From the NCBI GenBank assembly GCA_050943735.1, contig JBMNPT010000008.1, forward strand, positions 15,531-79,530: a stretch of DNA of 64,000 bases. The letters run 5' to 3'. The translations under genes and the position numbers were made by a program. Under the pieces are notes generated by a model, which did no database searches, had not been told where the DNA came from, and saw only the letters and a program-made list of their open reading frames with translations. Of this stretch, positions 1-38,161 are shown in pieces (positions within the stretch are counted from its first letter, which is position 1; each line of letters opens with the position of its first letter). Source of the DNA: Eubacteriales bacterium. GTDB taxonomy: Bacteria > Bacillota > Clostridia > Oscillospirales > RGIG577.

Positions 1-68
1 AGCGCAGCTGGTAGCGTGCTTGACTGGGGGTCAAGAGGCCGTGGGTTCAAGTCCCGCTACTCCGACCA
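1..68 (+). tRNA. tRNA-Pro (anticodon GGG), 5' end cut by window
   Basis: D arm AGCGCAGCTGGTAGCG; anticodon arm CTTGA-CTGGGGG-TCAAG; T arm GGGTTCAAGTCCC; ends TCCGACCA (encoded CCA at 66-68). Confidence 0.95.
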
Positions 69-35047: not shown

Positions 35048-36997
35048 TCACCCAATGACCTTGCGGTCCACTACGTCCACGATTTCCGCCACGAAGTCCT
35101 GACAGGACATCACACGGTTTGCCTGCTGGCCCCGCAGACGCACAGACACTTCGCCCTTTTCCACCTCGCTGTCGCCGATGATCAGCATATAGGGGATCTT
35201 TTCCATCTGGGCTTCCCGAATCTTAAAGCCGGTCTTTTCGCTGCGGGTATCCACCGTCACCCGGATGCCCTTAGCTTCCAGAGCGGCCTTCACCTGATCG
35301 CAGTAGTCGTTGTGCCGGTCGGCGATGGGCAGAATCCGTACCTGTTCCGGACACATCCAGCAGGGCAGAGCGCCGGCGTATTTTTCGATCAGCAGAGCCA
35401 GGGTACGTTCGTAGCAGCCCATGCTGGTACGGTGGATGATATAGGGATTGACCTTCTTGCCATCCCGGTCCACATATTCCATGCCAAACTTTTTGGCCAG
35501 CAGCAGGTCGATCTGAATGGTTACAAGAGTATCTTCCTTGCCGAACACATTCTTGCACTGGATGTCCAGCTTGGGACCATAGAAAGCCGCCTCATCAATG
35601 CCCACAGTGTAGTCCACACCCAGATGATCCAGAATGCGGCCCATGATGCTTTGAGCTTCATCCCATTGCTCGGGAGTGCCCTCGTACTTGTTTTCCGGAT
35701 TGGCCGGATCCCACTGAGAGAACCGGAAGGTGCAGTCTTCCAACAGGCCCAGGGTACCAAGGCAATATTTGGCAAGATCCAGACAGCCCTTAAATTCCTC
35801 TTCCAGCTGGTCGGGACGGATAATCAGATGACCCTCGGAAATGGTGAACTGCCGCACCCGGATCAGGCCGTGCATTTCGCCGGAGGCCTCGTTGCGGAAC
35901 AGCGTGGAGGTCTCGCCCAGACGCATGGGCAGATCCCGGTAGGAGCGGCCCCGATTGAGGAATACCTGATACTGGAAGGGACAGGTCATGGGGCGCAGCG
36001 CAAAGCACTCCTTGGTCTCATCATGAGGATCGCCAATGATGAACATGCCGTCCAGATAGTGATCCCAGTGGCCGGAAATTTTATAGAGATCGCTCTTGGC
36101 CATCAGAGGAGTCTTGGTGAGTTGATAGCCGCGCTTCTGTTCCTCGTCCTCAATCCAGCGCTGCAGCAGCTGAATCACCCGCGCGCCCTTGGGCAGCAGG
36201 ATGGGCAGGCCCTGACCTACGCAGTCCACCGTAGTGAAGTACTCCAGCTCCCGGCCCAGTCGGTTGTGATCCCGCTTTTTGGCCTCCTCCAACTTGGTCA
36301 GATGCTCTTCCAGCATAGCCGCCTTGGGGAAGGAAACGCCGTAGATCCGGCGCAGCATTTTGTTTTTCTCGCTGCCCCGCCAGTAGGCACCGGTGACGCT
36401 GAGCAGCTTGATGGCCTTGATGCCGGAGATGTCCTGCAGATGAGGACCGGCGCACAGGTCGGTAAACTCATCACCCTGTTTGTAGAAGGAGATCACAGCG
36501 TCCTCGGGCAGGTCACGGATCAGCTCTTCCTTGTAGGGCTCGTCCTGCTCTTTGGCCCAGGCCAGCGCCTCTTCCCGAGACAGTTCAAACCGGGTGAGAG
36601 CCAGCTTTTCCTTGACGATCTTCTTCATCTCGTCCTCAATGCGGGAAAGCTCCTCCGGGGTCCACTGCTCCTCGGTGTCAAAATCATAGTAAAATCCATT
36701 GTCGGTGGAAGGGCCAATGGCCAGCTTCACCTGAGGGTACAACCGCTTGACCGCCTGGGCCAGCACATGAGAAGTGGTGTGCCAGAAGGTCTTTTTGCCC
36801 TCCATATCATCAAAGGTCAGCACTTTGAAGTCACAATCAGTGGTGAGCGGAGTGTTCAAGTCCATGGTAGTGCCATTGATCTGCACCGCCATGGCGGCCC
36901 GATACAGCCCCATGCTGATGTCCTTGGTCACCTGCGCTGCGGACACACCGCTTTCGTACTCTTTTTCGCTTCCGTCTGCCAGTTTGATCTTGATCAT
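35048..36997 (-). CDS. thrS: threonine-tRNA ligase
   Basis: TGS domain, WHTTSH, DLCAGPH, RDHNRLG, RPMTCP, FRNEASG, AAFYGPKLD, IHR. Confidence 0.97.
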   Translation of the reverse strand: MIKIKLADGSEKEYESGVSAAQVTKDISMGLYRAAMAVQINGTTMDLNTPLTTDCDFKVLTFDDMEGKKTFWHTTSHVLAQAVKRLYPQVKLAIGPSTDNGFYYDFDTEEQWTPEELSRIEDEMKKIVKEKLALTRFELSREEALAWAKEQDEPYKEELIRDLPEDAVISFYKQGDEFTDLCAGPHLQDISGIKAIKLLSVTGAYWRGSEKNKMLRRIYGVSFPKAAMLEEHLTKLEEAKKRDHNRLGRELEYFTTVDCVGQGLPILLPKGARVIQLLQRWIEDEEQKRGYQLTKTPLMAKSDLYKISGHWDHYLDGMFIIGDPHDETKECFALRPMTCPFQYQVFLNRGRSYRDLPMRLGETSTLFRNEASGEMHGLIRVRQFTISEGHLIIRPDQLEEEFKGCLDLAKYCLGTLGLLEDCTFRFSQWDPANPENKYEGTPEQWDEAQSIMGRILDHLGVDYTVGIDEAAFYGPKLDIQCKNVFGKEDTLVTIQIDLLLAKKFGMEYVDRDGKKVNPYIIHRTSMGCYERTLALLIEKYAGALPCWMCPEQVRILPIADRHNDYCDQVKAALEAKGIRVTVDTRSEKTGFKIREAQMEKIPYMLIIGDSEVEKGEVSVRLRGQQANRVMSCQDFVAEIVDVVDRKVIG

Positions 36998-37012
36998 TTT
37001 TTCTTCTCCTTT

Positions 37013-37121
37013 CGACGCGGCACTACGAACGCCGCCGCCATTGCATCCGCGACTCTGCCGCGGACAGACGCCCTTTTGCGTCTGTATGTTCTATTATAGG
37101 AGTGTCAAATTGGAATGTCAA
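37013..37121 (-). promoter_or_regulatory. thrS promoter and three-hairpin leader with CGU anticodon-like loop
   Basis: TTGACA-N17-TATAAT (37121-37093); hairpins ACAGACGC/GCGTCTGT, TCCGCG/CGCGGA and GCGGCG-TTCGTAG-TGCCGC next to SD AAAGGAG. Confidence 0.7.
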
Positions 37122-37149
37122 CCGCCAGAAGCCGCCAGTTAGGCCAAAT

Positions 37150-37185
37150 AAAAGACGGGGAAGAAAGCTCTTCCCCGTCTTTTTG
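37150..37185 (-). terminator. terminator after the sugar kinase
   Basis: AAAAGACGGGGAAGA-AAGC-TCTTCCCCGTCTTTT. Confidence 0.85.
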
Positions 37186-37195
37186 CACTGTTTTG

Positions 37196-38143
37196 TCAGC
37201 GATAAATCGCTTCGATGTGATTGAGTACCCGATCCAGTTCTCTTCTGGGACGATATCCTTCCATGTCACCCCGCACACTGATGGCAAAAGCGCCCATGAT
37301 ATTGCCCATTTTTCCGCACAGCTCCAGGGATTTGCCCTCCAGGAAACCGCACAGAAAACCTGCGTCAAAAGCGTCGCCGGCGCCCACCGGGTCCACCTTT
37401 TTGGCGGGATGGGGATCGGACATGATCTGATCACCCCGGTCAGCCACCACAGCACCCTTGCTGCCCAGCTTGATGGCCATGGAACGGGCGCCGAATTCCC
37501 GCAGCTGCCCGATGATGGTGTCCACATCCCGGGTGCCCAGCAGAATTTCCGCCTCGTCCAGTCCCATCAGCACAATGTCCGACTTTTTCAGGATGGGTAG
37601 CAGGGTTTCCTTGGCCTTTTCCCGACTCCACAGCCGCAGACGGATGTTGGGGTCAAAGCTGACCAGCACGCCGTCCTTTTTGGCCACATCCACAATGTGC
37701 ATGGTGGCCCGGGCACAGTCATCACTGAGCGCGGGGGTAATGCCCGTCACATGGACCACCCGGGCATCACGGATGTAATCCTCATCGATGTCCTCCGGCA
37801 CCAGCGTGCTGGCGGCACTGCCTTTCCGGTAGTACATGACGGTGGTTTCCTCACCCTCATTGATCTGCTTGAACATCACACCGGTGGGATGGGTGGGGTC
37901 CATCACCACGCGGCTGGTATCCACGCCTTCCCCGCTGATTTCCTTGATGATGTACTCACCAAATACGTCGTCTCCCACCTTGCTGATCCAGCCGGTGGAA
38001 TGCCCCAGCTTTTTCAGTCCGGTGGCAAAGTTGCTCTCCGCACCCGCATACCGCTTGCGGAATTCACTGACATACTTGAGAGACCCGCTGTCTCTGGGAA
38101 CAAACAACACCATAGCTTCACCTAAGGTCACTACTTCCGGCAT
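37196..38143 (-). CDS. PfkB-family sugar kinase (KdgK-like)
   Basis: GAESN.A, GDD.FG, HVTGIT, FDPNIR..LW, DPVGAGDAF. Confidence 0.92.
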   Translation of the reverse strand: MPEVVTLGEAMVLFVPRDSGSLKYVSEFRKRYAGAESNFATGLKKLGHSTGWISKVGDDVFGEYIIKEISGEGVDTSRVVMDPTHPTGVMFKQINEGEETTVMYYRKGSAASTLVPEDIDEDYIRDARVVHVTGITPALSDDCARATMHIVDVAKKDGVLVSFDPNIRLRLWSREKAKETLLPILKKSDIVLMGLDEAEILLGTRDVDTIIGQLREFGARSMAIKLGSKGAVVADRGDQIMSDPHPAKKVDPVGAGDAFDAGFLCGFLEGKSLELCGKMGNIMGAFAISVRGDMEGYRPRRELDRVLNHIEAIYR

Positions 38144-38161
38144 GATCATCTCTCCTTTGTT

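Follow-up and report, generated by a model that had tools for sequence, protein, structure and literature searches.

The window, the whole 64-kb stretch of DNA that was analysed, carries thrS, the sole ThrRS gene in the 1.99-Mb, 19-contig genome. The encoded ThrRS has the full bacterial architecture, with a TGS domain, a second additional domain, the class II core and the anticodon-binding domain. The features of the locus are listed below, with positions counted in the window.

37196-38149: PfkB-family kinase gene, upstream of thrS (PfkB match, E 5.6e-61)
37143-37183, minus strand: intrinsic terminator of the PfkB-kinase gene, a 15-bp hairpin (37183-37150) followed by a U-run
37093-37121, minus strand: sigma-A type promoter TTGACA-17 nt-TATAAT, 12/12 consensus positions (shuffles give 0.5 sites)
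37064-37085, minus strand: hairpin HP1, perfect 8-bp stem with loop AAAAGG, pair probabilities near 1
37047-37063, minus strand: hairpin HP2, 7-bp stem and loop AGA, or alternatively a 5-bp stem and loop GCAGAGU
37014-37039, minus strand: hairpin HP3, 9-bp stem with bulged G37035, two G-U pairs and the 7-nt loop UUCGUAG
37006-37012, minus strand: Shine-Dalgarno (SD) sequence AAAGGAG, with GGAG at 37009-37006, 8 nt before the AUG
35048-36997, minus strand: thrS, an ORF of 649 aa with its AUG at 36997

The terminator hairpin (MFE -27.5 kcal/mol, z -5.0, 0/200 shuffles as stable) would insulate thrS from upstream transcription. Its 15-bp stem is preceded by an A-run and followed by a U-run and the element could therefore work in both directions; it was not listed by the consensus scan. 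From the position of the promoter, rather than from observation, we infer that the transcription start site (TSS) of thrS lies at ~37087-37085, which leaves a leader of ~88 nt up to the AUG. Perfect promoters of the form TTGACA-16..18-TATAAT occur 36 times in the 2-Mb genome, against ~0.7 expected by our own arithmetic, and thrS has one of them (examples are C1:195462(+), C5:71836(+) and C2:65017(-)). Two others closely precede T-box matches, and this pattern of perfect promoters at thrS and at two T-box leaders suggests strong promoters that are throttled downstream. One perfect promoter lies ~145 nt before the tRNA-Thr(UGU) gene at C1:195607.

No T-box was found at thrS. At the gathering score, Rfam recovered only a tRNA in the 64-kb window and no T-box (RF00230), and at E<=10 the region 36900-37300 again contained no T-box, with six sub-threshold chance matches (E 0.45-9). 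The leader itself has no T-box sequence, specifier stem I or terminator/antiterminator. A T-box further upstream was considered and rejected, because the PfkB coding gene and its terminator occupy that region; for the same reason a far-upstream TSS that would include a T-box, which a first-pass annotation of this DNA had named as evidence against its own reading, is not plausible. The perfect promoter, the short leader (given there as about 90 nt) and the lack of a T-box, all claimed in that annotation, thus stand. The genome as a whole has 13 T-box matches, of which 8 are over the cut-off, and none is at thrS. Within the window, a T-box match at 1662-1918 on the minus strand (C8:17192-17448) scored below the Rfam cut-off (81.9 vs 93 bits). 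The negative Rfam result says nothing on a ThrRS operator, since Rfam misses that of Escherichia coli too (locus L205, 0 matches at E<=1).

The thrS leaders of other genomes were compared in a survey of 276 leaders, of which 253 were unique and 246 had at least 120 nt upstream. The T-box core motif was present in 178 of these 246 and absent in 68, in line with the statement of the first-pass annotation that thrS of Firmicutes is usually T-box controlled. PMC2494555 gives a T-box for this gene in at least 29 of 34 Firmicutes. Judged from the distribution of the core motif (178/246 leaders), the T-box is the apparent ancestral state of thrS around this lineage. The motif proved a reliable guide where it was checked: RF00230 was matched at E<=3e-8 by each of the 9 loci tested that have the motif and by none of the 5 tested that lack it. 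One of these five, L003, looks by eye like a degenerate T-box.

The sample of the own order, in which the own genus is represented by one species only, contained ThrRS in 60/61 genomes (59/60 relatives plus the own genome), with a best identity of 73%. Among the 30 loci listed for this order, the core motif was present in 16 leaders and absent in 14. The wider Clostridia contributed 160 further loci from metagenome and genome contigs (118 with the motif, 35 without, 7 too short). Their ThrRS N-terminal identity was at most 68%, and very near records may be left out of this search; the closest named records were labelled Ruminococcus sp., Oscillospiraceae and Acutalibacteraceae. The Lachnospiraceae sample gave a ThrRS match in 115/121 genomes and 86 leaders, 30 from one set of loci and 56 from a further 60 upstream regions, the other four being unusable. 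In all four other genomes of the own family within the sample of the own order, thrS lies ~20 nt behind another gene in three and has a short unstructured leader in one. In several relatives (L011, L029, L031) thrS lacks a T-box and follows a promoter and a short leader without structure; unregulated thrS leaders are therefore viable. In about 21 of the 60 relatives (e.g. L007, L013, L014, L020, L023) the best ThrRS match begins only at residue 57-71 of the query, and these proteins appear to be without the N-terminal TGS domain.

A leader homologous to the one described here was found at none of the 276 thrS loci from the own order, the wider Clostridia and Lachnospiraceae. When the leader was searched by BLAST in 400 genomes of the order, all matches were chance ones of 17-41 nt (best E 0.001). 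Eight sequencing runs were listed for the species, none of them of RNA, and in the four other metagenome DNA runs compared it was present at low depth, as contigs of 151-264 nt. These covered the leader fully (X2), from 37004 (X6) or in part (X3, X5), with HP3 covered in X2 and X6 only, and where covered they showed no difference inside 36998-37092.

Folding of the 99-nt leader sequence gave the three hairpins at -36.5 kcal/mol (z -3.2, 0/200 shuffles as stable), and the three-hairpin leader proposed in the first-pass annotation is confirmed by this. The first base of HP1 lies 0-2 nt away from where the mRNA is inferred to begin. The loops of HP1 (AAAAGG) and HP2 (AGA or GCAGAGU) are neither of them anticodon-like. 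The last hairpin had been placed at 37040-37013 and directly against the SD. Its 7-nt loop with CGU at loop positions 3-5 was retained in our analysis, as was its proximity to the SD; the stem runs from 37039 to 37014, contains the bulged G and two G-U pairs, and its last pair is separated from GGAG by 4 nt. The loop occupies 37029-37023, with CGU at 37027-37025, U at loop position 2 and A at position 6. In the ensemble, pair probabilities of HP3 were 0.26-0.63, most of them 0.5-0.63. Suboptimal folds within ~1 kcal/mol of the optimum had the same HP3 stem throughout, with a loop of 7, 9, 5 or 3 nt, and the 7-nt loop was preferred by 0.7 kcal/mol over a 3-nt loop closed by U32-G38 and U33-A37. 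Taken alone and compared with shuffles of its own G+C-rich sequence, HP3 was not stabler (z +0.2, 109/200 shuffles as stable). The SD is predicted to be open, with an unpaired probability of 0.73-1.0, and the ensemble of the leader contained no alternative fold that sequesters it. None of the three hairpins is followed by a U-run of the terminator type. The overall structure of the leader and its promoter exceed chance, the anticodon-like loop only moderately so.

Two small ORFs lie in the leader on the minus strand. One (37046-37023) encodes MQWRRRS, and its UAG stop coincides with the last three bases of the HP3 loop; the other (37041-36994) encodes MAAAFVVPRRKEKKK, and its TGA stop overlaps the ATG of thrS (ATGA). 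Both are without a good SD and without a Thr codon. A leader-peptide attenuator was rejected on the missing Thr codons in both ORFs and the lack of a hairpin with a U-run. Neither the leader nor any of its hairpins recurs elsewhere in the genome, and a repeated element was rejected because the leader is unique there. A cloverleaf-like tRNA mimic made of the three hairpins was rejected because the anticodon-like arm is the last hairpin and not the middle one. HP3 as a mimic of a T-loop was rejected as well: UUCG fits, but the fifth base is U, whereas the own tRNA-Thr genes have A there in their T-loops.

For each of the anticodons UGU, CGU and GGU a single tRNA-Thr gene is present in the genome, with the anticodon loops UUUGUAA, CUCGUAA and UUGGUAA. 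The HP3 loop UUCGUAG fits their consensus YUNGUAA at 6/7 positions: U33, C34, G35, U36 and A37 are all in place and position 38 is G, not A. The region upstream of E. coli K-12 thrS, folded in the same analysis, has an SD-proximal hairpin GUGAUCU-UUCGUGU-GGGUCAC (operator domain 2), and the bases UUCGU are common to its loop and that of HP3. The likeness to the anticodon loop of tRNA-Thr that had been claimed for the last hairpin is thus borne out. In E. coli, ThrRS represses its own translation via two stem-loops that carry CGU and mimic the anticodon arm, and the N-terminus of the bound ThrRS clashes with the 30S subunit, as described in the review PMC7373986. The account in PMC3858243 likewise has two hairpins bound by ThrRS and describes the SD of E. 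coli thrS as weak.

How often such a hairpin arises by chance was estimated in the own genome. Hairpins whose stem has 6 bp or more and whose 7-nt loop fits U-NGU-R numbered 114 over both strands, which is 0.27% per 95 nt; with stems of 4 bp or more the rate was 1.65% per 95 nt. Crude gene starts were then called where the stem had, within 15 nt, an SD, a start codon and an ORF of 80 aa or more; 843 hairpins with a 7-nt loop were SD-proximal by this definition, and 14 of them were Thr-like. With a gene total of ~1,900 estimated for a 2-Mb genome, ~0.7% of the genes carry such a hairpin (14/~1,900), and the p value for thrS being among the carriers is ~0.007 in this genome. Ten of the other 13 carriers were scanned with Pfam; eight belonged to families unrelated to threonine, among them a lipase, a spore germination protein and ferredoxins, and two gave no match. 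A looser list added four carriers (a helicase, alanine dehydrogenase, a sulfatase and prephenate dehydratase), and in this list NGU loops made up 6 of 104 anticodon-loop-shaped SD-proximal hairpins, vs 6.5 expected at 1/16. A threonine regulon sharing the motif was rejected, as none of the 14 other carrier genes checked was related to threonine. The motif has an ordinary background, so look-alikes at thrS are to be expected by chance when very many genomes are scanned.

The survey of thrS leaders was also searched for hairpins whose 7-nt loop reads U-NGU-R and whose stem has 4 bp or more. Among the 68 T-box-less leaders one contained such a hairpin, and this was the ascertained thrS leader itself (1/194 seven-nt-loop hairpins). 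In the 178 leaders with a T-box, 6/792 seven-nt-loop hairpins fitted. The scan picked up the E. coli operator as a positive control. Thr-like hairpins are thus not enriched in T-box-less thrS leaders. The 86 Lachnospiraceae leaders sampled include 22 without a T-box, and none of these 22 had such a hairpin. Looser loops (5-9 nt) with U[CGU]GU in all leaders were discarded, being mostly artefacts of terminator U-tracts. A locus from a rumen metagenome, L076, has the T-box motif at -137 from thrS and, ~30 nt ahead of the start of thrS (where the match begins, 1501), a post-terminator 5-bp hairpin near the SD with the loop GUUGUAA. This loop resembles that of tRNA-Thr(UGU); the related locus L079 is without such a hairpin. 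Repeats were seen in the last 140 nt before thrS at three T-box-less Lachnospiraceae loci, namely two copies of a ~45-nt direct repeat unit starting ggctcgagggtgctgagaccgg in L153 and L232 and a tandem array of taagtagagtaagaag units in L300.

On one reading the leader would be a tRNA-mimicking operator that lets ThrRS repress its own synthesis at the level of translation and that arose independently of the one in E. coli. Free ThrRS would bind HP3 with its anticodon-binding domain and read G and U of the CGU loop as it does G35 and U36 of tRNA-Thr. With only 4 nt between HP3 and GGAG, ThrRS on the hairpin would keep the 30S subunit from binding, and uncharged tRNA-Thr would compete for ThrRS and so relieve the repression. 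This would fit a loop with U33, C34, G35, U36 and A37 that is like both the own tRNA-Thr and domain 2 of E. coli, a ThrRS that has all four domains including the N-terminal ones, a chance rate of ~0.3-1.7%, and a structured leader behind a perfect promoter with an SD that is otherwise open. Our own arithmetic, combining this chance rate with a log-uniform prior bounded by 0/67 other T-box-less leaders, puts its posterior at ~0.2-0.45. It has to be set against this that the leader is an orphan, with no homologue in 276 thrS loci or 400 genomes, and that the 68 T-box-less leaders show no enrichment, and several relatives get by on a short plain leader behind a promoter. Position 38 is G and not A, and pairing of U32 with G38 and U33 with A37, which would shrink the loop to 3 nt, costs only 0.7 kcal/mol. 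There is a single mimic hairpin vs two in the E. coli operator, and the strong SD AAAGGAG stands vs an SD that is weak in E. coli thrS, both as described in the papers cited above; a strong SD would make competition by a singly bound protein harder. Altogether, autorepression through HP3 seems possible and rather unlikely. Another factor, such as an RNA-binding protein, an sRNA or a small ligand, might instead act on the leader as a regulatory RNA, with the CGU loop incidental. The leader is indeed more structured than its shuffles and lies behind a perfect promoter, and the negative Rfam result says little here, as Rfam holds described families only and misses the E. coli operator. Still, the genome has no second copy of the leader or its hairpins and the relatives no homologue, no alternative fold sequesters the SD and no U-run follows the three hairpins, so that we give this reading only a small probability.

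We favour, at about even chances, the reading that the Thr-anticodon look of HP3 is a coincidence in a generic structured leader. The lineage would have lost the T-box of thrS and would transcribe the gene from its consensus sigma-A promoter with a lineage-specific three-hairpin leader. A 5'-terminal stem-loop can shield Firmicute mRNA against 5'-end-dependent decay, and HP1, at the very 5' end, would act as such a stabiliser of the mRNA. The SD would stay single-stranded, and threonine or ThrRS would probably not be sensed. The loop of HP3 would be a look-alike in a G+C-rich hairpin, picked from very many windows. The orphan state of the leader, the lack of enrichment and an HP3 that alone is no stabler than shuffles make the coincidence the most likely reading. 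What speaks against it is the low chance rate per leader (0.3-1.7% per 95 nt, ~0.7% of gene starts), and HP3 lies at a place where protein binding would obstruct the ribosome. The match to tRNA-Thr at 6/7 positions and the UUCGU shared with the E. coli operator loop would also be left to chance. Moreover, the leader is more structured than shuffles, and its perfect promoter fits throttling downstream.

The anticodon-arm likeness of HP3 was found in one species only and may be a coincidence. If the mimicry is real, it arose independently, because no relative examined has a homologous leader. It is then conceivable, although we find it doubtful, that a T-box-less clostridial lineage independently evolved feedback in the style of E. 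coli, with one mimic placed right against a strong SD. Such a ThrRS operator, with a single hairpin, would be minimal and the first case of its kind in Firmicutes. It would mean that evolution has found synthetase autoregulation by anticodon-arm mimicry repeatedly and that such regulation can replace the Firmicute T-box. A single hairpin against the SD would suffice, making a minimal and easily engineered protein-responsive translational switch, and a systematic search of T-box-less aminoacyl-tRNA synthetase leaders would be justified. If the likeness is a coincidence, the locus is a useful calibration case: in a 2-Mb genome, a hairpin resembling the Thr anticodon adjoins the SD at ~0.7% of gene starts.

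Full-text literature searches turned up no anticodon-mimic ThrRS operator in Clostridia or Firmicutes, which agrees with the statement of the first-pass annotation that no description in Clostridia was known to it. Among known systems, the 5'-terminal stabiliser stem-loops of Firmicute mRNAs resemble HP1 with its position 0-2 nt from the inferred 5' end, but leave HP2 and HP3 unexplained. The thrS T-box leader of Bacillus subtilis thrS/thrZ and most Firmicutes concerns the same gene, in the same position and phylum. A T-box loop carries the codon, whereas the HP3 loop carries the anticodon, in a leader of ~88 nt. In eukaryotes, a single look-alike of an anticodon stem-loop has been proposed to give the cognate synthetase control over translation of an mRNA, for yeast HisRS on its own mRNA (PMC6542539) and for ThrRS on RPC10 mRNA (PMC9956033). 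Neither is related by descent to the leader described here. The E. coli thrS operator is like the present leader in that a hairpin of the thrS 5' UTR closely precedes the SD and has a 7-nt loop of the form U-CGU-purine (UUCGUGU there, UUCGUAG here). It differs in several respects. In the cited papers, the ThrRS dimer of E. coli uses two mimics, domains 2 and 4, and the SD is weak, against the single HP3 and the strong AAAGGAG here. Its hairpin is spaced ~10 nt from the SD, compared with 4 nt to GGAG. The E. coli operator belongs to a different phylum, and beyond the five bases of the loop the two have no sequence homology.
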